IMG/VR virus record: IMGVR_UViG_3300030519_000020
Location: 1 to 57,262 of that record
Length of the DNA: 57,262 bases
Direction: 5' to 3' (one strand)
Origin: a virus
Lineage: Duplodnaviria > Caudoviricetes
Part shown: piece after piece, positions 3,369 to 56,829 of the stretch
Numbering within the stretch: position 1 is the first letter of the stretch
Layout of the letters: every line of letters starts with the position of its first letter
The notes under the pieces: model-generated
What the model saw: the letters and a program-made list of their open reading frames with translations, nothing else
Databases searched by the model: none
What the model was told of the DNA's origin: nothing
Made by a program: the position numbers and the translations under genes

Positions 3369-3412
3369 ATGATTCCTCCTTGATACAGATTAGATTGTAA
3401 ATTCGATTCACG

Positions 3413-3700
3413 CTAGCCAAGTTCAGGCCATTTTATTTTTTCTCGCCGGGTATGCTCCGCTTGCAAGGTTGACAGCCATTGGCGGGACCGTTCCAGCGCT
3501 TCTCCTAGGGTGAAAGCAGGGACCAAGTGCGCAACTTGTTTCTTCCACTCCCTCACCTTGGCCGGGTCCAGTCCGGCCAGCATCGCGCACAGGCCAGCCT
3601 CTTCCACCTGGAGTTTGGCGATGGCAGATTCCAGGTGCCGGTCCGCCATCGCCTCGATAGGGACGGATTTTCCGGAATGGCTCGGGTATGGTTTGCTCAT
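3413..3700 (-). CDS. hypothetical protein
   Basis: 95-aa ORF with a protein-like composition in the gene run. Confidence 0.6.
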   Translation of the reverse strand: MSKPYPSHSGKSVPIEAMADRHLESAIAKLQVEEAGLCAMLAGLDPAKVREWKKQVAHLVPAFTLGEALERSRQWLSTLQAEHTRREKIKWPELG

Positions 3701-5136: not shown

Positions 5137-5859
5137 CTATTGGCGCGGAGTAGAAATGCCAAACTCTCGAGCCACACGGAACATTGCTATGGCTGCGTTG
5201 TATTCGGCAAGAAAGCGGGGATTGTCTGCGTGTTCCTGACTGACCCTGGCCACAAAATCCTCCAGGGATCCACCCTGGTAATCGTTCCAGCAGCCGCACA
5301 CCACGCGATCCTCGTCGATCCAGTAGGTGGTGGTCGCGCGCCGGCTGCCGATGGGGCCAATCTGGAGGACATTGATTCCGTCGGCACCGCTCAGGTTGGC
5401 ACCGCTCAGGTTGGCACGGCTCAGGTCGGCACCGCACAGGTCGGCACGGATCAGGTCGGCACGGATCAGGTAGGCACCGTTCAGGTTGGCACCGCTCAGG
5501 TCAGCACCGCACAGGTCGGCGCCGCACAGGTCGGCACCGCTCAGGTTGGCACCGTTCAGGTAGGCACGGTTCAGGTAGGCACGGTTCAGGTTGGCACGGT
5601 TCAGGTCGGCACCGCTCAGGTCGGCACCGCGCAGGTCGGCACCGCTCAGGTTGGCACGGCTCAGGTCGGCGCCGCTCAGGTGGGCACCGTTCAGGTAGGC
5701 ACCGTTCAGGTAGGCACGGTTCAGGTTGGCACGGTTCAGGTAGGCACCGCTCAGGTCGGCACCGCTCAGGTTGGCACGGACGCCGCCATTGGCATCAGCC
5801 AGCCACAGGGCATGCAGGCGGATGACCTCTTTCAGTTCGTCGGGGCTGTAGGTCTTCAT
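5137..5859 (-). CDS. pentapeptide-repeat protein 1
   Basis: About 25 A(D/N/Y)Lxx repeats; C-terminal domain IGPIGSRRATTTY...CGCW; AGGAG RBS before ATG 5859. Confidence 0.9.
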   Translation of the reverse strand: MKTYSPDELKEVIRLHALWLADANGGVRANLSGADLSGAYLNRANLNRAYLNGAYLNGAHLSGADLSRANLSGADLRGADLSGADLNRANLNRAYLNRAYLNGANLSGADLCGADLCGADLSGANLNGAYLIRADLIRADLCGADLSRANLSGANLSGADGINVLQIGPIGSRRATTTYWIDEDRVVCGCWNDYQGGSLEDFVARVSQEHADNPRFLAEYNAAIAMFRVAREFGISTPRQ

Positions 5860-5970
5860 GGTGGATCTCCTGGGGTCAAAACCCCATGTAATTGGGGATG
5901 GGTGAATTAGCGATGATGCCCCATGCGATGGCGGCACCTACGATGATCAGGATGATTCGGTGCCGGTCCA

Positions 5971-6255: not shown

Positions 6256-6446
6256 AGTTCCCTCAGCCTGGTAATCCCATTGTTCGGATCAATATATAGT
6301 TCCGGGATCACGTTTTCCGGAACCTCGATGTAGCCCTCTGGAGAACCAGTTTCGGACTCCCATACTTCGTCCTCACTGGCGTTCCGGATGTATTCGCCTA
6401 CCTCCGTCAAGAGGTGGCCGTGGTCTACATAGACGCGCATGGTCAC
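6252..6446 (-). CDS. hypothetical protein
   Basis: 64 aa, 4-bp overlaps on both sides. Confidence 0.6.
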   Translation of the reverse strand: MTMRVYVDHGHLLTEVGEYIRNASEDEVWESETGSPEGYIEVPENVIPELYIDPNNGITRLREL

Positions 6447-7252
6447 AAGTTGTATGCCTCAGCCTCTTCCTTAGTCAGGAAGAAATTGATGCCATGGGAA
6501 CATGTATCCCACCTGTTGTCGTCCCAGGAATCAGCCGTGACGCGCTGGCCAGCTCGATAAATGGTTCTTGGTGTGTGGTCCGAGTAGCATTCTTCGGCTC
6601 CGATCACCTCTAGCACATTCACAAACTCGGCCCGACATTTCCGCTCTGCGCCATGGGATCGCCGGGCATCTTCCGGGACCAACAGTTTAACGATGACATC
6701 ACCACTGACGGAGTGACACTTCTTCCAGGCCCAGAACGGCCCGGTTGGCGGGATGTGCATCCTTATTGCTAGCGCGAGTTCCGCTCCCTTGGCACCGTTC
6801 AGGTCGGCACGGTTCAGGTTGGCCCCGCTCAGGTTGGCACCGATCAGGTTGGCGTCGCGCAGGTTGGCACCGCTCAGGTAGGCACCGTTCAGGTCGGCAC
6901 GGCTCAGGTAGGCACCGTTCAGGTAGGCCCGGCTCAGGTCGGCACCGTTCAGGTAGGCGTCGCGCAGGTTGGCACCGCTCAGGTAGGCCCCGCTCAGGTC
7001 GGCCCAGCTCAGGTTGGCCCCGCTCAGGTTGGCCCCGATCAGGTAGGCGTCGCGCAGTTCGGCCCGGCTCAGGTCGGCCCCGCTCAGGTAGGCACCGCGC
7101 AGGTTGGCCCCGCTCAGGTCGGCCCGGCTCAGGTTGGCACCGCTCAGGTCGGCACCGCGCAGGTCGGCACGGACGCCGCCATCAGCATCGGCCAGCCACA
7201 GGGCATGCAGGCGGATAACCTCTTTCAGTTCGTCGGGGCTGTAGGTCTTCAT
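6443..7252 (-). CDS. pentapeptide-repeat protein 2 with DUF5758-like C-terminal domain
   Basis: Pentapeptide repeats followed by WKKC..IVKLLVPEDARRS..RKCRAE..CSHGINFFLTKEEA. Confidence 0.9.
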   Translation of the reverse strand: MKTYSPDELKEVIRLHALWLADADGGVRADLRGADLSGANLSRADLSGANLRGAYLSGADLSRAELRDAYLIGANLSGANLSWADLSGAYLSGANLRDAYLNGADLSRAYLNGAYLSRADLNGAYLSGANLRDANLIGANLSGANLNRADLNGAKGAELALAIRMHIPPTGPFWAWKKCHSVSGDVIVKLLVPEDARRSHGAERKCRAEFVNVLEVIGAEECYSDHTPRTIYRAGQRVTADSWDDNRWDTCSHGINFFLTKEEAEAYNL

Positions 7253-12627: not shown

Positions 12628-13061
12628 CGTGTATCGCCTGGGATGGGAAGACTCTAGCTGCGGATAGGCAGGGAACCAATAATGGCCTCAAAATTTTATG
12701 CACCAAAATAAAGAGGCTCAAGGGTGGTGCCGTTGTTGCGTTCACTGGCGAACTTGAGATGGGGATTGAACTTGCCAAGTGGTGGGAAGATGGGGCAGAC
12801 CCTGAGAAATGGCCGTCATACCAAGCGACAGACGATTGGACCCGAATGATCATTGCCCAGGATGGTCATGTTTCCGTCTACGAGAAGCGTCCCATCCCCC
12901 AACCCGTGGAAGATCCATTTGCAGCATGGGGATCTGGACGCGACTTCGCTATCGGGGCCCTTGCCATGGGAGCAGACGCTCGAACGGCGGTCGGAATTGC
13001 TAGCAGATTCAACACTGGCAGTGGGATGGGGATTGATTCGTTTGAGGTAGGCAATGGGTAA
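12624..13061 (+). CDS. Ntn-hydrolase (HslV/proteasome-beta-like) phage protein
   Basis: N-terminal MT-CIAWDGKTLAAD, GSG..FAIGAL and SGMG motifs. Confidence 0.7.
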   Translation: MTCIAWDGKTLAADRQGTNNGLKILCTKIKRLKGGAVVAFTGELEMGIELAKWWEDGADPEKWPSYQATDDWTRMIIAQDGHVSVYEKRPIPQPVEDPFAAWGSGRDFAIGALAMGADARTAVGIASRFNTGSGMGIDSFEVGNG

Positions 13062-13857
13062 GCGGAGAGACTCAGACATCCCGGTTGATCCTGCCATCGA
13101 GGATGCCAGGGTGATGGCAAGCCGAGTCCCGTTGACGCTGGTTGACGCGATGGAGATGTTCTTCACTGAGAACCCGAGTTTGGGCGTGGGTGATCTCCGG
13201 GCGGACATCACCCTGGAAGCTTTGCAGCGCACCGAACACCAGGACCACTGGACGATATGCGGGCGGAAACTGGACCGCGCCTCTGTTATGGAAACCATCT
13301 TGGACCTGACGGCCCGGGGGTACTCGATCCCAGCCATCCTCCAGCAGCCTGGGATGCCGAAGCCTCGTACCTACATGGCTTGGGTAAATGACTACAAGGT
13401 TTTCGCGGACATGATGGCGGTGGCCGAGCAGATGCGGGCCATCATCCTTGCCGAGCAGGCATTGAATATCGTGGACCTCCCGGACCCAGACGGTAGCCAG
13501 ACTTTTAAGCATAAAATCCAGTCAGACCTTCGCGTTCGTCTAGCTGAAATATTCAATCCAAAGAAATACGGCAAGAAGCAGGTCATTGACATCAACCGCC
13601 ACGATGACGCCAACCCGGCCGAGATGTGGAGCCGGTTCATCAGCGTCCTGAGCGTCTACAAGCAAATGATCTTCGACAAGACGGGGATCAAGGTCATCAT
13701 GCCTGGGGAGAGTGAGGACATGGTGGCTACGGCAGACGCCGAAGTGGTTCCCGAGGAAGAAGAGATGGAAGCCATTGGGATGGAAGGCGCTACCGATCCG
13801 ACGACGCCCACGAACTACGATGATATGCTCACGTTCGATGACCTTCCAAAGGAGTAG
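13054..13857 (+). CDS. terS: terminase small subunit
   Basis: HTH-like GYSIPAILQQPGMPKPRTYMAW, EQALNIVD, NPKKYG; upstream of terL. Confidence 0.7.
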   Translation: MGKRRDSDIPVDPAIEDARVMASRVPLTLVDAMEMFFTENPSLGVGDLRADITLEALQRTEHQDHWTICGRKLDRASVMETILDLTARGYSIPAILQQPGMPKPRTYMAWVNDYKVFADMMAVAEQMRAIILAEQALNIVDLPDPDGSQTFKHKIQSDLRVRLAEIFNPKKYGKKQVIDINRHDDANPAEMWSRFISVLSVYKQMIFDKTGIKVIMPGESEDMVATADAEVVPEEEEMEAIGMEGATDPTTPTNYDDMLTFDDLPKE

Positions 13858-14032: not shown

Positions 14033-14206
14033 ATGCCGCTGTATTCGAGGAAGTGTGTCCTGTGCGCAAAGACGGAAGAAGTCATCCTGCCCGTGTCCCA
14101 GATGGACACCCCGGGGGTTTGCCCCTGCTGCGGTGAGACGATGAAGCGGGTGGAGTTCCCGGGATGCTCTGTCTACATCGAGCAGGTAAAGGAACTCTGG
14201 GAGTAG
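14033..14206 (+). CDS. FmdB-like zinc-ribbon protein
   Basis: MPLY..CVLC..CPCCGETMKRV. Confidence 0.7.
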   Translation: MPLYSRKCVLCAKTEEVILPVSQMDTPGVCPCCGETMKRVEFPGCSVYIEQVKELWE

Positions 14207-14208
14207 GG

Positions 14209-16182
14209 ATGCCGAAACACAACGACCTATTCGGCTTGGTCCAGGGACTCAGCGACTTTTCAACCCTGGTTGAGCAGGAAGCGGCTACGGCGTTCGTTGA
14301 CATTTGGACGAGGCGTCCACCCAACAAACCACAACTCGCCTTCTGGGAGTCGAAGCGGCACATCAAGGCCATCTCTGGGGCCAATCAGTGTCTTCGCGGA
14401 GACGCCGCCGTCCTGATGTGGTGCGGGGATGAGAAACGGATCGACTGTATCGAAGTCGGTGATGAAGTGGTGGCGTTCGACTTCACCACGGGCGAGTTTG
14501 TCCCGAGCCAAGTCAAGGCCATCTTCACCAATCCGGGTCGCATCCTGCACCGATTCAAGCACTCACAGGGCTGGCTGGAGTGCAGCCAGAAGCACAAGGT
14601 GGCCGTGCAATACCCCTCCGGCCGCATCGCCCTAGTTAGGGTCATGCGGGCCGTGAAGCACCAGCTTCCGGTGTGGGTGGACAAGGAAGGCCATGCGGAA
14701 CTGTCCGAGCTGACCTACGAGGGGAAGATTGGCTACGAGCCTACCTGGGACATCAACATCGACCACCATGACCACGCCTTCGTGTGTAATAATATTGTAG
14801 TTTCCAATAGTGGTAAAAGCTTGGCTGCGGCCGTAAACATTGCTTGGGATGCCACGGGCATCTACCCGGAGTGGTATCGGGGCCCGCGCACAGTCCGAGG
14901 CATCAACGCTTGGGTGGTCGGTGAAACTACCGAGTTGACCCGAGACTCGGCCCAGAAAAAGTTGTTTGGACCCAACATCGACAAGCCCGGGTGGACGGAC
15001 AAGCCGGGTGACGAGGCCCTGATCAACTCGAAATACATCATCGACAAGCCGACTCGTAAGTCTGTTTCCGGTGCCATTGACATGGTTCGGGTGAAGCACG
15101 TCCCGAGCGACACAACGTCCCTGATTGCCTTCAAGTCGCACGGCATGGAGACAGGGGCCCTCGCCTCCTGGACTGGTGATAGGGCGTGGATCGATGAGGA
15201 ATGCCCGTTGGAGATCCTGGACGAGATCCAGGCCCGCATGTCCACCACCAACGGCTACATCTACTGCTCGTATTGCCCACAGCACGGCCGGACTCCCTTC
15301 GTGAAATCCATGGAGGAAGAAGGCCCGGACGTGTTCCTAGCCTACATGACCTATGATGACATCAACCACATCTCAGAAGAGGTGAAGGCCCGCAATATCC
15401 GCCGCTGGTCACATGATCCGGCGATGCTTGCAGCCAGAACCCAGGGCCATGCAACCTCGAATTCTGGTCTTATCTTCCCGTTCCCTACCAAGGACATCCT
15501 TTACGACCCCGCCTTGATCTCCATTGGCAAGCGGTGGAAGTTCCTGGGGGGTATGGATGTTGGCTGGACCCATCCTACGGCCGCCGTAGGGCTCGCTCTA
15601 GACCCCATGGCCGATGTTGTCTACTGCTATGTGGACTACGAGCAGGACCGCCGGCCCCCGGTTTACCACTACGGCGAGCTGGACCGCTGGGGACGGTCGA
15701 TGACATTCATGATCGACCCTGCTTCGGACCAGGTGGCCCAGAAAGATGGAGAAAAGATCCTTGAAGAGTATTGGACTCTTGCACATGGGTCTGGATATGA
15801 AAATATTGACGAAGATAAACGCAAGTTTATCAAAGCAGACAACTCGTTTTTGACTGGTATGGGGAATCTGTGGCACAGATTCAGCACTAATCGCCTATTT
15901 ATTAGCAAGAATTTGAAAAAGTTGATCGACCAATACGCGAATTACGAGTGGAACAAGAAGGGCGATGGCCCAATGGAAGAAACTCCGAGCCGGAAATATG
16001 ATATCATCACGAGTTTGCGCTATGGAGTTGGTGGTATTAACCAGTATTCTCATATTCTGAACGACTTCCCCCCTTGGATGACGGCTGAATCGTTCGAGGA
16101 ACCGATTGAGATCAAGGAGTGGTCGAAATTCCGTGCTGGTGGATCCCCACCGATCACTGACCAGTTCGGTCACACCTACTGA
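14209..16182 (+). CDS. terL: terminase large subunit containing an intein
   Basis: Walker A GANQ|SGKS, Walker B AWIDEE, nuclease GMDVGWTHPTA. Confidence 0.92.
   Translation: MPKHNDLFGLVQGLSDFSTLVEQEAATAFVDIWTRRPPNKPQLAFWESKRHIKAISGANQCLRGDAAVLMWCGDEKRIDCIEVGDEVVAFDFTTGEFVPSQVKAIFTNPGRILHRFKHSQGWLECSQKHKVAVQYPSGRIALVRVMRAVKHQLPVWVDKEGHAELSELTYEGKIGYEPTWDINIDHHDHAFVCNNIVVSNSGKSLAAAVNIAWDATGIYPEWYRGPRTVRGINAWVVGETTELTRDSAQKKLFGPNIDKPGWTDKPGDEALINSKYIIDKPTRKSVSGAIDMVRVKHVPSDTTSLIAFKSHGMETGALASWTGDRAWIDEECPLEILDEIQARMSTTNGYIYCSYCPQHGRTPFVKSMEEEGPDVFLAYMTYDDINHISEEVKARNIRRWSHDPAMLAARTQGHATSNSGLIFPFPTKDILYDPALISIGKRWKFLGGMDVGWTHPTAAVGLALDPMADVVYCYVDYEQDRRPPVYHYGELDRWGRSMTFMIDPASDQVAQKDGEKILEEYWTLAHGSGYENIDEDKRKFIKADNSFLTGMGNLWHRFSTNRLFISKNLKKLIDQYANYEWNKKGDGPMEETPSRKYDIITSLRYGVGGINQYSHILNDFPPWMTAESFEEPIEIKEWSKFRAGGSPPITDQFGHTY
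14389..14808 (+). mobile_element. 140-aa mini-intein in the TerL Walker A motif
   Basis: Starts CLRGDAAV; block B WLECSQKHKV; ends TWDINI..HAFVCNNIVVSN followed by Ser; too short for a homing endonuclease. Confidence 0.9.
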
Positions 16183-16199
16183 TTACTATTGTTATCAGT

Positions 16200-16660
16200 A
16201 TTGTTGAACAACATCCTGGATGGTGAACGGCCGAGTGGGCACAGGCCCCCATTTCCAGGGAGCCAATGCAAAAACATCCTGGCGTGGAGCCACGGTGTCG
16301 TAAGCACTCATCCCGGCGACTCAAACGAGGCCCGGTCAGCTGTAACCTCTCGTCGCTATGCCCAAAAAGCCTGGCGGTTTCCCCTCTGCCGGGATGATGA
16401 CTCGGGGGATTCGTGTGGGTAGTTGGTCCAAGGCCACACGCCGGGATGGCAATTACCCCGGAATCGGAATTGTATTCTCTGGAAGGGATGCTAAGACGGG
16501 GTATGCCGCTCAAATTGCCCTACGCATTGCCCGCTGAGAAGTTTCGGGGTGCGTTCCAACTACAAGTGTAGGTTGATGGGGTGATGACGCAACAAAAAAA
16601 TCCCCCGCTTCTCAGTTCGGGGGACCCGACAGTGGCGGCGCTTGGCACGGCGACCATCTC
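16200..16660. ncRNA. large structured non-coding region between terL and portal
   Basis: At least six inverted-repeat stems and no credible ORF; strand uncertain. Confidence 0.5.
16591..16624 (-). terminator. intrinsic terminator-like hairpin
   Basis: TCCCCCG/CGGGGGA stem followed by a T7 run on the minus strand. Confidence 0.6.
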
Positions 16661-16667
16661 AAAAGGA

Positions 16668-16695
16668 AGTATACCTCCATGTGGCAACCGCGCAA
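16668..16695 (-). promoter_or_regulatory. leftward promoter facing into the structured region
   Basis: TTGCGC-16 nt-TATACT. Confidence 0.5.
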
Positions 16696-16717
16696 GAGGT
16701 AAAATTTAGTCTATGAC

Positions 16718-16779
16718 TAAAAAGTAGTCATGTGTAAAAAGTAGTCATGTGTAAAAAGTACCGTTATGGATAAAAAGTA
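16718..16779. repeat. TAAAAAGTA box x4
   Basis: Copies at 16718, 16735, 16752 and 16771; first two units are exact 17-mers; extended -10 TGcTATGAT at 16787. Confidence 0.85.
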
Positions 16780-16814
16780 TACACCCTGCTATGATGAGCC
16801 CTGGGAGAGTGGCT

Positions 16815-19157
16815 GTGGCTTATCCATCGGGTGTGGGATTGGGGTCAATGGCTGCGGCAAGGATGCCGAGCGCCCCGCAGGGCGGCGGGCTCATGTCCCT
16901 TCAGCCTCCCATGTCTGGCCCGAACAGCGCCCCGCCCGACGACAAGCCGATTGGAGAAGTGGCGCACGACAACCTGGACGAGGTTGAAGGCGCTAGCAAG
17001 CTCATCGGCCAGTTCGAGAACGAGATTCAGCTTTCCGATGACGCCCGCCGGGACAAAGAGTGGGCGTGGTGCAAGATCGAAAAGTATCTGCACGGCAAGG
17101 ATGTGAATGAGCCCCGCGAGGGCTACGAAGAGTCCACATTCTTCTACCGGCGTCTTCCTCGCATCGTCCAGATTGGACGTGCCAAGCTCTACAAGCAGGT
17201 CTGCCCCCTCCAGGGCCGTCCTTGGGAGATCAAGCCGAGCCCCCGACGCCGGACCCAGATGGACCCGAAGGAAGAAGAACGGCGCGTGTCTCGTCTGCGG
17301 GAAGAATTCGAGGACATTCACGAAGCCATGGAGTTGGAAAACTGCATGGACGAGATGTGTACCCAACTTTCCTCGCTAGGCAGTTCCGTGGTGATTGGAC
17401 CGACCCAGCTCCGCCAGCCAGCGCTCCGGTGGAATGATGGCGACGAGGAGATCGACAAGGAAGACGTGCGCAAGCCGATGTGGGAGTTCATCGACCCGAA
17501 GCGGGTCTACCCGGACCCCAACACCCGGTTCCAACAGGGCCTGGAATACGTCCATGTCCACCACGTCATGTCTGCCCACCAGATCCGGAGTCTTCAGGAC
17601 GATCCGACCTTCATCAACAGCGAACTGGCCGACCTGATCATCGACATGCCGGACGGCAACTGGGCCGGTAACCTCCGGAGATGGGAAATCTTCCCGTTCC
17701 CGACGAACATCAGCAATGCGATGCTGAATCGCTACATCGTGTGGCGGCGCATTGGTGTCCTGAACTGCCAGGCGATGGAAGACCTGGGCGAAGACATCCA
17801 GTCCCACATTAAAGAACTGGAGATCACCAACGACGAAGGTGTCGTCATTGGGCATCGGGACTTCAAGGGCCTCGACAAGGCCCAGAAGAACGCTCTGATA
17901 GACGGTATTTGGGAAATCTGGTGGTGCGGGAACCATATTCTGAAGGTGTCCAAGCGCAAGTTCCAGCCCAAACGGATGTACGTCCACTTCATTCCGTTCC
18001 GGGTTGACCCGGGCAGCATCTTTGGCGTCGGGGCCGGTGAGTCTGGCCTTGAAGTCTGCGAGATGCTGATCAACATCTGCCGTTCGATTGACGATGCTTT
18101 GGCCGATACCTCTGGGTTCCAGGCGATGATCGACGCAGGGGCCATCGAGAATAAGGACCTGACCATCCGTGGCCGCAAGACGTGGCTCTGGCGGGACAAG
18201 GGCGTGGGCAAGAAAATTGGGGCTACCGGGAAGCCGATTGAACTGTTCACCGTCCCGTCCAACCTGGACAAGCTTCTGGAGTGCGCCAAGTATTTTGAGT
18301 CTCTGATCCCGGTGGTGACCGGCTTTACCGAGAATGCGGATGGCAAGGCGCTTGGATCCGGTGTCCGCACGGACGATATGCTGGAACGGATCTGGGAGTC
18401 CCTGGAAGAATTCATCAAGGACGTGGTGGGGAATGTGGACCGTTATTGGTGGAAGCCGCACCTCCGGGACTGCTACCACTGGATCAAGACATACTACGAG
18501 AACAAGGACGAGTTCATGGTCGAAGCCGACCTTCAGGTCCAGGGCGTCAAGGGCGCTCTGCGGCGCGAGATTGTCGGCCGGAAGGCCAAGGAACTATTCA
18601 AGGATCTGCACCAATACGGTCTTCCCAAGTGGATGGATGAAGTGGAGTTCCTAAAGGCCATCTCCGAAGGGATGGGCCTGGACCAGGAACTTGCCGTCAA
18701 GACGGTGGACCAGTATGTGGAGGCCATGAAACTTGAACTTCAGCAGAAGATACTGAACGATGCACCGGCCAACGCTCAAAAGGACAAGGAGCGGGCCCAT
18801 GCTTCTGCTTTGGACACCATGGCTGAGATTTTCAAGGCCGGCATGACACAGGGTAAGGACGGTCTGCCGCCCCCCATCGTCATCCCTGCGGCCGAGCAGA
18901 TGTTCAAGCTCACCGGGAAGATGGACGAGAAGACCATCGCGGCATTCGCTGTCTGGTCCACGATGCTATCCCAGCAATACCTTGCGGCGGCATCGGCTAC
19001 GGCCGAGCAGGCCAAGGTTCTGAGCAGCCCCGTTCCGATTGATGGGCCGAACGAGTTGACCCCCGCCGCCAAACAGGCCCAGCAGCAGGCCCAGCAGCCA
19101 CCACAAGGCGTTCCGCAACCTCAGCCTGCCCAACCACCCCAGGGGATGCAGTCATGA
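16815..19157 (+). CDS. portal protein
   Basis: About 780 aa after terL; EFIDPKRVYPDP, PGSIFGVG and IRGRKTW portal-type motifs; start GTG 16815 inferred from GGGAGA (ORF open from 16791). Confidence 0.8.
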   Translation: MAYPSGVGLGSMAAARMPSAPQGGGLMSLQPPMSGPNSAPPDDKPIGEVAHDNLDEVEGASKLIGQFENEIQLSDDARRDKEWAWCKIEKYLHGKDVNEPREGYEESTFFYRRLPRIVQIGRAKLYKQVCPLQGRPWEIKPSPRRRTQMDPKEEERRVSRLREEFEDIHEAMELENCMDEMCTQLSSLGSSVVIGPTQLRQPALRWNDGDEEIDKEDVRKPMWEFIDPKRVYPDPNTRFQQGLEYVHVHHVMSAHQIRSLQDDPTFINSELADLIIDMPDGNWAGNLRRWEIFPFPTNISNAMLNRYIVWRRIGVLNCQAMEDLGEDIQSHIKELEITNDEGVVIGHRDFKGLDKAQKNALIDGIWEIWWCGNHILKVSKRKFQPKRMYVHFIPFRVDPGSIFGVGAGESGLEVCEMLINICRSIDDALADTSGFQAMIDAGAIENKDLTIRGRKTWLWRDKGVGKKIGATGKPIELFTVPSNLDKLLECAKYFESLIPVVTGFTENADGKALGSGVRTDDMLERIWESLEEFIKDVVGNVDRYWWKPHLRDCYHWIKTYYENKDEFMVEADLQVQGVKGALRREIVGRKAKELFKDLHQYGLPKWMDEVEFLKAISEGMGLDQELAVKTVDQYVEAMKLELQQKILNDAPANAQKDKERAHASALDTMAEIFKAGMTQGKDGLPPPIVIPAAEQMFKLTGKMDEKTIAAFAVWSTMLSQQYLAAASATAEQAKVLSSPVPIDGPNELTPAAKQAQQQAQQPPQGVPQPQPAQPPQGMQS

Positions 19158-20804: not shown

Positions 20805-21770
20805 ATGGCTATTACCCGTGTTGTCCCTACCCAGAACACCGGCATTCCTGCCGCCTCCCAGGCGCTCCTCATTGAGGAGATCGTCGAAGGTCTGACCATG
20901 GACGTGATGCGCCGGGAATCGTATCTCGGCAAGATCGCCAACACTGAAGCTCTGAAGAAGCTCGAACAGTTCGGTGATCAGATCACCTTCCGCGTGCTGA
21001 ACCCTCCTCCGATCCAGCCGTACTACGCCAATATGGACCTGGTTCCGACCGTCACCACCGGGACCAACTTCACGGTCCAGGTCAACAACGCCTTCTACGC
21101 CTACCCCACCCTGGACATCGTGGACATCAAGGAAATCAACCTCCCGCTGATGTCCCAGATCGCCCGGATGATGGCCGACGCGATGGCCGAGAACGAATAC
21201 CTGGTGGTTGTGGCTGGCCTCATCACCACGGTCTACGGCGCCCCCACGATGGTCTATGAGGGCCAGGTCCCGGGCACCGTTGCCTACAACCCGGCTGTGC
21301 CGACCTACGTGTCCAGCACTGATCGGACCGACCCGGACTACATCATCAATCAGTTCCTCGCCGCCCGGAAGGCTTACAACCAGATGGGTATCCCCCGCAA
21401 GGGCCGGTATGCGATGGTCAACTCGGACGTGGAGCAGATCCTGCTCCAGAGCGACCAGTTCACCTACCAGATCAACGGCGAGCGCAACGCCAAGATGATC
21501 GAGGACGGCGACTTCTCCATGCGCGTGGCCGGGTTCGACATTATCGTCACCGATGCCATCCCCACCGCGACCTACGGTGGCGTCTCCAATATCTGCCAGG
21601 GCGTCCTTGGCCATGTGAATGGTCTCGGCTTCGTCCGCCAGATCATGGAAACGGACATCAACTTCAAGATGCAGACCAAGGCCGGGCGTGCTTGCCGGAC
21701 CTTCGATGTGTTCGGCTACGGGCTGTCCGATAGCCGTTACATGGGCGCCTTCCCCCTGAAGGTTGCCTAG
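20805..21770 (+). CDS. major capsid protein
   Basis: 321 aa; GDQITFR, MGIPRKGRYAMV, VAGFDIIVTDAIP, VFGYG; strong codon bias. Confidence 0.85.
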   Translation: MAITRVVPTQNTGIPAASQALLIEEIVEGLTMDVMRRESYLGKIANTEALKKLEQFGDQITFRVLNPPPIQPYYANMDLVPTVTTGTNFTVQVNNAFYAYPTLDIVDIKEINLPLMSQIARMMADAMAENEYLVVVAGLITTVYGAPTMVYEGQVPGTVAYNPAVPTYVSSTDRTDPDYIINQFLAARKAYNQMGIPRKGRYAMVNSDVEQILLQSDQFTYQINGERNAKMIEDGDFSMRVAGFDIIVTDAIPTATYGGVSNICQGVLGHVNGLGFVRQIMETDINFKMQTKAGRACRTFDVFGYGLSDSRYMGAFPLKVA

Positions 21771-55474: not shown

Positions 55475-56575
55475 TCAACCGGCGAGGTCGTCTTGGTCGA
55501 ATAGAAGTTGATGGGATGCCTCGGTGGATGGCTTGAGGCAGTAGGGGCTAAACCAGATCCGTTCCTTGCTGGCGTTCTCGCGACCCCGGGTATCGCCCTG
55601 GGAACCGTAACCGCCCCGTGCCTTCCATTTCAGGCAGGTCCAGCCTTCGGGAAGTTCGTGTTCCCCCTGGTAGCCACAGAGGGCGATGCGGAGCAACGGG
55701 TTGTCCCCGTTGGCAATGGCCCACTTCCGAACGTCATGGGCCACAGTGGACGAATCGACGGAGTAGAGGTCTTCCTGCCGGTCAGCGGTATCCGCATAGG
55801 GCGGGTCGAGAAAAACGCCCGTGATGCCATGTTGGAACGTCACTGAATCGCCCATGACCCGCGTCCAGTCGCCGCTGCACACCCGAACATTGCGGAGCCG
55901 TTCCGCCAGTTCCATGAAGGTTGCGAGAATGAAATCGCCCCTCCCAGCGTCCCCCAGGTGGGGAAGCTGGCGGTTCACGCCCATCCCAGCGTTACCCAGG
56001 TGGGGAAGCTGGCGGTTCACGCCCCTCCCAGCGTTACCCAGGTGGGGAAGCTGGCGGTTCACGCCCATCCCAGCGTTACCCAGGTGGGGACGCTTGCGGG
56101 CATCGGTCAACTGCCCCTCCTCGATGGACCAGGGTCCGTTCCCTGAACACCAGCCGGACCCGATCCATGAGCAGACTCCCCAAACCCACCACCCGGCGAT
56201 CTTGGGATCAAAGAAGTCCGGGTCGCCCTCAAGCCTTGCGGTGAGAGTTTCACGCTGCTGGACGAGCCAGATGTGCCGGGCGTGGAGGTCGTTCTCGTTT
56301 ACCGGCCAGTCGGCAAAGTTCGCGGTCGCCTCCGGGTCTGCCTGGATGGCCCTCCAGAAGTTCGCCAGGAAACCGTCCTTGTCGTTGACGGACTCGGAAC
56401 CGGTGAAGGGCTGGGGCCGGAGCAGCAGGACCGCGCCGGATCCAAAGAACGGCTCAACGTAGTTCCGAACGTCCCCAAAGGCGTCCCAGACTTCCTGGGC
56501 CACCGTGGACTTGCCTCCGAACCATGGGAAAGGGGATTTCAAGACGGACTCCTGAAGGGTGCTGAATTTGGACAT
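55475..56575 (-). CDS. DNA adenine methyltransferase (Dam/D12-like) with an internal tandem repeat
   Basis: FPWFGGKS, YVEPFFGSGAV, FLDPPY. Confidence 0.92.
   Translation of the reverse strand: MSKFSTLQESVLKSPFPWFGGKSTVAQEVWDAFGDVRNYVEPFFGSGAVLLLRPQPFTGSESVNDKDGFLANFWRAIQADPEATANFADWPVNENDLHARHIWLVQQRETLTARLEGDPDFFDPKIAGWWVWGVCSWIGSGWCSGNGPWSIEEGQLTDARKRPHLGNAGMGVNRQLPHLGNAGRGVNRQLPHLGNAGMGVNRQLPHLGDAGRGDFILATFMELAERLRNVRVCSGDWTRVMGDSVTFQHGITGVFLDPPYADTADRQEDLYSVDSSTVAHDVRKWAIANGDNPLLRIALCGYQGEHELPEGWTCLKWKARGGYGSQGDTRGRENASKERIWFSPYCLKPSTEASHQLLFDQDDLAG
55936..56090. repeat. 42-bp in-frame tandem repeat, about 3.7 copies
   Basis: Encodes RQLPHLGNAG(M/R)GVN. Confidence 0.95.
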
Positions 56576-56580
56576 GCGCG

Positions 56581-56829
56581 TTATTTGACGGTGTTGGGGT
56601 CGATCCAAGAAATCCCGGTGGGGGTACCTTGGGCGTCCCGCGAGTCGATGGTCAGCAGCCCCATGTCATCCCCGGCGTTGACGGCGGCGATCTCGGCGGG
56701 TGAGAGAGGGGCGTCACCTCGGGTTGCGTTGATGATGGCCTTGAGGTGGTCCTGAACCACGCTGGCCCGGATGGATCTTCCGCAAAGGATCAAGGTATCC
56801 TTCTTTCTGGCGCGGCTGCGCCTGGACAA
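56581..56829 (-). CDS. hypothetical protein
   Basis: 82 aa in the gene run. Confidence 0.5.
   Translation of the reverse strand: MSRRSRARKKDTLILCGRSIRASVVQDHLKAIINATRGDAPLSPAEIAAVNAGDDMGLLTIDSRDAQGTPTGISWIDPNTVK

Follow-up and report, generated by a model that had tools for sequence, protein, structure and literature searches.

We have analysed a 57,262-base virus record (IMG/VR IMGVR_UViG_3300030519_000020; Duplodnaviria, Caudoviricetes), referred to here as the window, and describe a non-coding element located between its gene for the terminase large subunit (terL) and a portal-like gene (Table 1). The record is complete-looking (99%), and the gap between the two genes is 608 nt. The downstream gene is called portal on the basis of position and size only, and its 788-aa product had no Pfam match and no PDB sequence match. 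The element is a candidate new phage RNA module, most likely the source of a small RNA and of a longer RNA that is strongly conserved, both transcribed from the minus strand, counter to the flanking genes.

The element is present in some close relatives of the window and absent from others. A search of IMG/VR with the portal protein gave seven loci, of which four carry the element, L002 and L008 at ~100% identity and L004 and L005 at ~82%. In L003 and L006 the portal gene is 99-100% identical to that of the window, yet ~570 nt are missing, and the terL stop lies ~65 nt from the portal start. The limits of the element, ~16183 and ~16700, were set by aligning the short L006 spacer; the contig of L007 starts at the portal gene and is uninformative. 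Exact-pattern scans and nhmmer over all loci added L009, which is of the window type, and L020, a third and more distant type in which the element lies directly upstream of a portal homologue and is cut by the contig end at window position 16391. The metagenome contigs L185 and L186 are of the window type. With the window itself counted, the family comprises nine contigs and three sequence types (window; L004/L005; L020). Phages whose portal gene is 99-100% identical to that of the window do without the element, which is therefore dispensable. Left of the insertion site, L003 and L006 are 94-97% identical to the window, and right of it ~99%, so the insertion site is also a recombination joint. 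All 15 DNA sequencing runs that hold nearly the whole stretch are labelled as peat metagenomes, and a metatranscriptome contig from run X19 (window 16000-16182 and the junction) spans an element-less terL-portal junction with an L006-type spacer; both phage forms, with and without the element, therefore occur in peat samples.

Further searches did not extend the family. Among 182 loci, nhmmer kept 10 matches, all from six contigs, and most 15- and 16-mer matches were due to chance. Additional 16-mer scans of IMG/VR and a genome collection gave no nhmmer match among 45 loci, and scans of the genome collection returned no stretches and then 37 chance stretches, with no prophage copy and no host found. 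A metagenome scan returned three stretches and no sequence type beyond the three, and the six stretches from a gapped-pattern search were all already in the family. No match to the terL-portal gap was found with blastn among phage GenBank records. A portal-protein profile search identified one further distant phage, L193 (portal 53% identity), which is without the element; in this phage, a different gene, a 540-aa open reading frame (ORF; L193 1835-3457), lies upstream of the portal relative and ends 31 nt before it. Within the rest of the window, the element matched only over 10-21 nt (E of at least 0.42), which was judged to be chance.

A first-pass annotation, made from the sequence of the window, called the region non-coding unless its 119-aa minus-strand ORF should prove to be a conserved protein, and comparison of the types bears out the non-coding description. 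Indels of +1, +1, -2 and -1 separate the window type from the L004 type, and no ORF is kept between sequence types. The 119-aa ORF is only 67 aa long in L004, where the frame shifts after 20 residues, and a 102-aa plus-strand ORF of L004 is split across three frames in the window. The 119-aa ORF matched no Pfam or PHROG family, and in a protein search confined to lengths of 65-209 aa none of eight word-sharing candidates reached E <= 0.001. With its frame not kept and no homologue found among these families and candidates, this ORF was judged not to be a protein-coding gene. A shorter protein might be encoded, beginning MSGIPRLSIPS (minus) or MPLKLPYALPA (plus), with the RNAs described below acting as a type I toxin-antitoxin-like pair. 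The short frames do start alike in all types, and type I systems usually have a small RNA next to a longer one with structure. However, the frames diverge past 11-20 residues through the same four indels, the frame in which the most strongly conserved nucleotides are read changes from type to type, and neither a conserved hydrophobic peptide nor a Pfam, PHROG or homologue match was found, which makes this explanation extremely improbable.

Constraint was measured as the proportion of sites at which the window differs from L004 and from L020. Four-fold degenerate sites differ at 0.395 (L004) and 0.590 (L020) in the portal gene and at 0.485 (L004) in terL. The core of the element (16391-16560) differs at 0.065 (L004) and 0.108 (L020), and the region 16301-16560 at 0.089 and 0.108, respectively. 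Divergence is 0.229 (L004) at 16205-16300, 0.239 (L004) and 0.453 (L020) in the small-RNA region (16594-16660), and 0.303 (L004) and 0.645 (L020), about the neutral rate, in a 33-nt spacer that contains the putative promoter P2 (16561-16593). Blocks of up to 49 nt are identical between the window and L004, and in L020 the core is still 89% identical where the portal is only 67% identical. Judged from these comparisons, purifying selection on the element is strong. That the core is nearly invariant suggests that it serves as a scaffold to bind a protein or a second RNA, and not simply as an antisense RNA.

The uneven divergence along the element also bears on whether it is a decaying, functionless remnant of a selfish element, such as a free-standing homing-endonuclease gene or an ORF-less intron, that has spread recently. 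Such a remnant would fit the presence/absence pattern at a recombination joint and the ORF fragments that share their first 11-20 residues between types, and the neighbourhood is rich in selfish elements. The terL gene carries a Hint (intein) module (window 14380-14520, terL residues 73-119; a weak Pfam Hint match, E 7e-5). In L186 and L006, a ~1-kb LAGLIDADG segment of ~1,057 nt (L186 3838-4894; L006 1520-2576) lies inside terL, between window positions 14807 and 14824; despite this insert, terL of L186 is a single open frame of 1019 aa, with the LAGLIDADG domain at residues 435-475. These features point to a second, endonuclease-bearing intein in terL of L186 and L006 that is missing from terL of the window. 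However, recent spread would have left uniform divergence, and the observed values, 0.065 in the core against 0.30-0.65 in the P2 spacer, argue for selection. The core conservation in L020 despite its divergent portal, the lack of any Rfam intron match at E <= 10 and the lack of a homologue of the longest ORF among the candidates of the protein search also make a selfish remnant decidedly improbable.

Promoter-like sites were sought on both strands of the three aligned types using the rule TTGnnn, a spacer of 16-18 nt and TAnnnT, with at least 7 of 12 matches to a consensus of the sigma70 type. No such site was found on the plus strand of the element in any type. The minus strand has just two aligned sites, P1 and P2, at matching alignment positions in all three types (hexamers in Table 1). 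P1, promoter-like by sequence only, has 8, 10 and 9 consensus matches of 12 in the window, L004 and L020, respectively, with a spacer of constant length (16 nt) and variable letters, and L020 has one extra overlapping P1 variant. The spacer of P2 is 16 nt in the window and L004 and 17 nt in L020. Invariant sequence starts at the start points expected from each -10 hexamer, with GAGATGGT at 16660 and GGAAC at 16557.

Downstream of P1 lies the terminator hairpin T1, followed by a run of seven A residues at 16594-16600, which reads as U7 on the minus strand (16600-16594). The G/C stem (7 bp in the window, 7-10 bp over the types) and the U-run are kept in all three types and the loop is variable, so that T1 has the form expected of an intrinsic (Rho-independent) terminator. 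The minus-strand promoter and terminator that the first-pass annotation had placed here are thus both present, the former with its hexamer positions kept and the latter conserved in the relatives. A stricter generic scan of the window listed neither P1, P2 nor T1; its loop range was 3-8 nt, and the T1 loop has 10. P1 and T1 would delimit a 67-nt small RNA, sRNA1, whose ends we infer from these two signals. The fold of this stretch on the minus strand had z-scores of -2.08 (window), -3.89 (L004) and -3.81 (L020), and plus-strand values were -0.14 and -1.82. From the window to L004, hairpin 1 of sRNA1 has three changes, which lie in the loop, lie in a bulge, or convert U-G to U-A; in L020, the 5' arm GAUGGU is conserved but has another 3' arm as its partner.

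A second, long non-coding RNA is predicted on the same strand, beginning at the start point expected from P2. Its source would be P2 or, since P2 is weak, alternatively read-through of T1 from P1. H5, the first hairpin of this RNA, shows a G-C to A-U double change in its stem in L020; its loop varies in sequence and length between types. In each type the H5 loop is complementary to the T1 loop, and in each type the letters are different. With letters given as plus strand, the pairs are CUGAGAAG / CUUCUCAG in the window (8 nt), GUGAGAG / CUCUCAC in L004 (7 nt) and AUGCCC / GGGCAU in L020 (6 nt). When both loops were shuffled in 20000 rounds, this complementarity was reached 1, 116 and 65 times, respectively. 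This suggests a co-varying kissing-loop pair. In the window these loops contain CTGAGAAG (16534) and CTTCTCAG (16608), the last of the stems listed in the first-pass annotation; with its complementarity kept in all three types, this is the best-supported long-range pairing of the element. It says nothing about the strand, because all of its pairs are Watson-Crick. The annotation had this stem compete with the terminator in an attenuation mechanism. On the minus strand the competing segment is transcribed ~60 nt after T1, so the pairing cannot act as a cis attenuator, and cis attenuation through CTGAGAAG / CTTCTCAG on that strand was rejected on the order of transcription. Predictions of an RNA duplex between sRNA1 and the long RNA, made without intramolecular structure, gave long meaningless duplexes and were dropped.

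The remaining stems of the first-pass annotation are all found in the window, namely CCTGGA (16215) with TCCAGG (16254), TCATCCCGGC (16308) with GCCGGGATGA (16388), with GCCGGGATG at 16440 as a second possible partner, CGTGTGG (16412) with CCACACG (16434), and GGCAATT (16448) with AATTGCC (16513), accompanied by TACCCCG / CGGGGTA; the repeat AACATCCTGG likewise occurs at both 16210 and 16273. For two of these stems, pairing does not hold in the relatives. GGCAATT becomes GG-ACTT or GG-AATT with its partner AATTGCC unchanged, so that pairing is lost, and TCATCCCGGC becomes TCATCCCCGC with no compensating change.

The minus strand is favoured, though not proven, as the carrier of the core. Every transcription signal found in the element is on this strand. 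When the fold of the alignment was compared with column shuffles, which do not keep dinucleotides, z reached -2.3 or lower in 5 of 10 minus-strand windows (best -3.95) and in 1 of 10 plus-strand windows (best -2.52). Three hairpins (16239-16269, 16283-16294 and 16441-16461) have G-U pairs on the minus strand where the plus strand has A-C; in the first of these, 12 pairs are 100% paired on the minus strand and A-C mismatches are required on the plus strand, and the second, CGUGG / CCACG, likewise relies on G-U in the minus-strand reading, where the plus strand would give A-C. A column-wise scan for co-varying helices was noisy at 4-5 bp and served as a pointer only. Both strands may matter; late mRNA must cross the element.

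RNA libraries add a weak hint in the same direction. A small part of the stretch is represented in five metatranscriptome runs, and contigs were obtained from four. Two contigs cover parts of the core (16356-16503 from run X16 and 16405-16541 from run X17), and portal pieces were found in X17 and X18. The X17 core contig is flanked on both sides by adapter remnants, and these, which we take to be Illumina sequences, put its read 1 on the plus strand; assuming a dUTP-stranded library, the contig would represent minus-strand RNA. The portal contig from X18 is oriented the other way, which fits portal mRNA. The contigs do not cover sRNA1 or most of the element, and no small-RNA library is among the runs, so that for those parts they are uninformative either way.

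Several results weigh against a minus-strand pair of RNAs. P2 has 7, 7 and 9 consensus matches of 12 in the window, L004 and L020, respectively, and is therefore weak in the first two, and no terminator for the long RNA was found in the element. The first-pass annotation described the region as densely base-paired, but folding of the single sequence is no better than that of dinucleotide shuffles on either strand, with z of -0.76 (plus) and -0.51 (minus) for 16183-16700 and of -0.53 (plus) and -0.03 (minus) for 16205-16557, which includes the core. Covariation statistics are thin, with three sequence types of which one ends at 16391. The consensus structures of the two strands, each built from the same sequences on which it was scored, perform equally, with 7 pairs changed on both sides, a count reached in 0 of 500 shuffles, and ~97% of cells paired. 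Pairing of CCUGGA / UCCAGG and GGCC / GGCC (both U-G in L004) and of UACCCCG / CGGGGUA (G-U in L020) persists, by way of G-U, on the plus strand only. The RNA-library evidence consists of a few short, low-depth contigs of assumed strandedness, with DNA carry-over possible. Finally, H5 and T1 are inverted copies, so that templated correction at the DNA level could keep their loops complementary without selection on RNA.

Some of these results would also be expected if the plus strand were the functional one, with the element forming a structured part of the late terL-portal mRNA and acting in cis on its processing, its stability or the translation of the portal gene. H5 and T1 would then kiss inside one mRNA, which their all-Watson-Crick complementarity equally permits, and the minus-strand small RNA would be a true antisense regulator, as is lambda OOP. 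The late operon must transcribe the element on the plus strand unless terminated, the plus-strand consensus equals that of the minus strand in double changes, and several one-sided changes yield G-U on the plus strand only. The two AACATCCTGG copies have also changed in parallel, and CCAGG (16255-16259) is a possible partner for either of them, through G-U that exists only on the plus strand. On the other side, the alignment-fold z-scores are weaker on this strand, the 16239-16269 hairpin with its three double changes would need A-C mismatches, and the adapter-flanked RNA contig indicates minus-strand RNA if its library was dUTP-stranded. A cis-acting spacer also has no reason to keep two pairs of promoter-like hexamers and a U-tract terminator on the opposite strand amid drift. 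We therefore consider a plus-strand function fairly unlikely.

Constraint could also act on the DNA itself, through protein-binding sites and inverted repeats that form an auxiliary origin, a packaging or recombination site, or a regulatory region. The near-invariant blocks, which reach 49 identical nt when the window is compared with L004, exceed what helices demand; direct repeats that change in step occur alongside inverted repeats, and DNA hairpins would give equal covariation counts on both strands. Four phased, exact copies of TAAAAAGTA, which would be among the protein-binding sites, occur only beside the element. They are all of the exact copies in the genome, and matches with at most one mismatch number 8 genome-wide against 1.97 expected. 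Three similar copies occur in L004/L005, only degenerate ones in L003/L006, and none in L020. A regulator acting on P1 or on the portal gene may bind at these copies. However, L020 keeps the core without any copy of TAAAAAGTA, many of the kept pairs are of the G-U type on one strand or the other and would be poor in DNA, and the arrangement of a terminator followed by a promoter is a transcription signal. The element has a G+C content of 0.54-0.59, with no A+T-rich unwinding stretch inside, and is dispensable. A role at the DNA level is accordingly improbable.

Table 1. Features of the element and of its flanks (window coordinates; the RNA features are predictions)
Feature	Position	Strand	Details
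Accessory non-coding element, whole	16183-16700	-	~515-520 nt; present/absent polymorphism among relatives
P1 -35 (promoter-like)	16690-16695	-	TTGCGC; TTGCCA (L004); TTGATC (L020)
P1 -10 (promoter-like)	16668-16673	-	TATACT, invariant in 3/3 types
Predicted small RNA sRNA1	16594-16660	-	67 nt; 5' GAGAUGGU, hairpin 1, hairpin T1, U7
Intrinsic terminator hairpin T1	16601-16624	-	stem 16601-16607 / 16618-16624; 10-nt loop 16608-16617
P2 -35 (tentative)	16587-16592	-	TTGCGT (window, L004); TTGCCA (L020); directly after U-run
P2 -10 (tentative)	16565-16570	-	TACACT (window); TAAACT (L004); TATCTT (L020)
Predicted long non-coding RNA	16205-16557	-	~350 nt; holds highly conserved core; 3' end undefined
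Hairpin H5, first of long RNA	16522-16554	-	stem ACGCA..TGCGT + CCCG..CGGG; loop 16534-16544
H5 loop segment, candidate kissing-loop partner	16534-16541		complementary to T1 loop 16608-16615
Hairpin, 11-12 bp	16239-16269	-	16239-16250 / 16258-16269; window vs L004: 3 double and 3 one-sided changes via G-U
Hairpin CCGGGAU / ACCCCGG (plus letters)	16441-16461	-	G-U on minus, A-C mismatch on plus; U-A to C-G in L020
Hairpin CGTGTGG / CCACACG	16412-16440		invariant in 3/3 types, hence no evidence for or against
Direct repeat AACATCCTGG	16210-16219 and 16273-16282		L004 copies AACAGCTTGG / ATCAGCTTGG, changed alike
Four exact TAAAAAGTA copies	16718-16779		spacing 17, 17, 19 nt; just outside element, upstream of portal-like gene
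terL-stop hairpin	16177-16200		TACTGAT / ATCAGTA; helix scan 16187-16191 / 16196-16200, 2 double changes
terL, left flank	14164-16182	+	terminase large subunit, 672 aa; Pfam Terminase_6N (E 7e-6) and PHROG terminase large subunit matches
Portal-like gene, right flank	16791-19157	+	788 aa; phrog_332 'head-tail adaptor', connector class, E 5e-10

We place about even confidence in the reading of the element as an accessory, moron-like, non-coding cassette expressed from the minus strand, in which sRNA1 and the long RNA are linked by kissing loops. As an insert between genes that are adjacent in relatives, with what appear to be its own transcription signals, it has the defining features of a phage moron. 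The cassette would be read against the late operon. P1 would produce the small RNA from 16660 to 16594, with a hairpin at its 5' end and an end at T1 with the U7 tail, and the weaker P2 immediately after the U-run, or read-through of T1, would produce the RNA that contains the core, from 16557 to ~16205. The T1 loop of the small RNA would form a kissing complex with the H5 loop of the long RNA; alternatively, the contact could form within a single read-through RNA. In this way the small RNA would gate the stability or the activity of the long RNA, and the lineage-specific loop letters would be the specificity determinants. On this reading the effector is the long RNA, which would most likely work in trans as a scaffold for a protein or another RNA and would not be needed for virion production. 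An extended form of this hypothesis, possible but on balance doubtful, holds that the two RNAs make up a self-contained phage module with a lineage-specific kissing loop that moves as a unit between genomes, and that the long RNA belongs to a new structured class with a trans role in phage-host or phage-phage competition. The large non-coding RNA proposed by the first-pass annotation is partly supported, by the lack of coding, the strong constraint, the conserved minus-strand promoter and terminator and the seven pairs changed on both sides in either strand model; dense thermodynamic pairing, attenuation and a role as a packaging RNA or origin are not supported.

The surroundings are those of a late structural region. 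A Sf6-type small terminase (13054-13857) and a P22-like coat match (20805-21770) were identified with Pfam. A hairpin spans the terL stop, and L004 has a hairpin with other letters (GTTCTAG / CTAGAAC, around 3409-3428) at the same place. The 3' part of terL (window 15700-16100) has a G+C content of 0.41-0.45, compared with ~0.58 around it, and may be a mosaic piece adjoining the recombination joint. Elsewhere in the window, two pentapeptide-repeat proteins are encoded on the minus strand (5137-5937, E 3.9e-45; 6443-7252, E 2.8e-73), and the second carries a DUF5758 domain as well. Proteins of this kind can act as DNA mimics, so an anti-defence role is possible. A D12-class N6-adenine DNA methyltransferase domain was also found on the minus strand (55475-56608, E 5.3e-8).

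Rfam 15 includes pRNA, RNAI, C4, group I and II introns, GOLLD, ROOL, HEARO, tmRNA and RNase P. Infernal searches of the whole window against Rfam 15 gave no match at the gathering score, and at E <= 10 the region 16000-16900 had four matches, all well under gathering (scores against gathering thresholds of 13.8/70, 13.3/49, 10.5/45 and 8.6/50), two of which fit only the terminator hairpin. The element was thus matched to no family by the search that the first-pass annotation had proposed. ARAGORN predicted no tRNA or tmRNA gene in the window. A group I or II intron, self-cleaving ribozyme, riboswitch, tmRNA or RNase P had no support from Rfam or ARAGORN. Among the titles and abstract openings returned by a full-text literature search, no RNA element between terL and portal turned up, which is not proof that none is in print.

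The element is notable for its on/off polymorphism in near-identical phages, constraint 5-6x stronger than that at neutral sites, its apparent own signals and its co-varying loops. Non-coding phage cargo is far less charted than protein morons, and the element is a candidate RNA-only accessory module. Should the minus-strand reading hold, abundant uncultivated peat phages would yield a new RNA family; under the plus-strand or DNA reading, the element would remain a conserved cis element at the terminase-portal junction. The family is small, with nine contigs of three types, and no host was found, which limits its immediate reach.

Described morons usually encode proteins. The element resembles them as a dispensable insert between genes adjacent in close relatives, with promoter-like sites and an intrinsic terminator, and differs in having no conserved ORF and in being antisense to the late operon. 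The first-pass annotation had proposed a packaging RNA comparable to phi29 pRNA or an RNA-primed origin comparable to that of ColE1. The pRNA of phi29 is required in packaging and binds the connector. Like pRNA, the element would be a non-coding RNA of a phage with terminase-driven packaging, and it adjoins packaging genes. Unlike pRNA, it is on the favoured strand antisense to those genes, and it has no match to the Rfam model. Sister phages with the same portal gene do without the element, so it is neither essential for packaging nor the only origin; neither proposal is therefore upheld. ColE1 RNAI and RNAII overlap on opposite strands, so that their loops are complementary by construction, and the long RNA primes replication. 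The element would share with them a short hairpin RNA and a long structured RNA able to meet through loop-loop kissing; in contrast, its predicted units lie in tandem on one strand, their complementarity is confined to one loop pair, and no Rfam model was matched.

Lambda OOP is comparable in size and layout. Like OOP, sRNA1 is a predicted transcript of ~70 nt with a constitutive-looking promoter and an intrinsic terminator, antisense to phage mRNA. Unlike OOP, it overlaps no coding sequence and is paired with a conserved long non-coding region that bears its co-varying loop partner.

The closest parallel is with c4 of P1 and P7 and the CI RNA of P4. In these systems the antisense RNA and its target lie on the same strand, recognition is through loop-target pairs, and the pairs differ in specificity between P1 and P7. 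Similarly, a loop of the predicted small hairpin RNA of the element matches a downstream site on the same strand, and the two co-vary. C4 antisense RNA is described as a regulator of ant in P1 (PMC8201110). The element differs from c4 and CI in several respects. It has no Rfam match to them at either the gathering score or E <= 10, its putative target is the loop of a non-coding RNA hairpin rather than a ribosome-binding region upstream of an antirepressor gene, it is located in the late structural region rather than an immunity region, and there is no evidence that sRNA1 is processed from a longer transcript. By analogy, the element would work most like these same-strand antisense RNAs without being a member of their families and, if the proposed interaction is true, would stand next to P1 c4 and P4 CI as a second type of system in which RNA-RNA specificity is encoded on the same strand.

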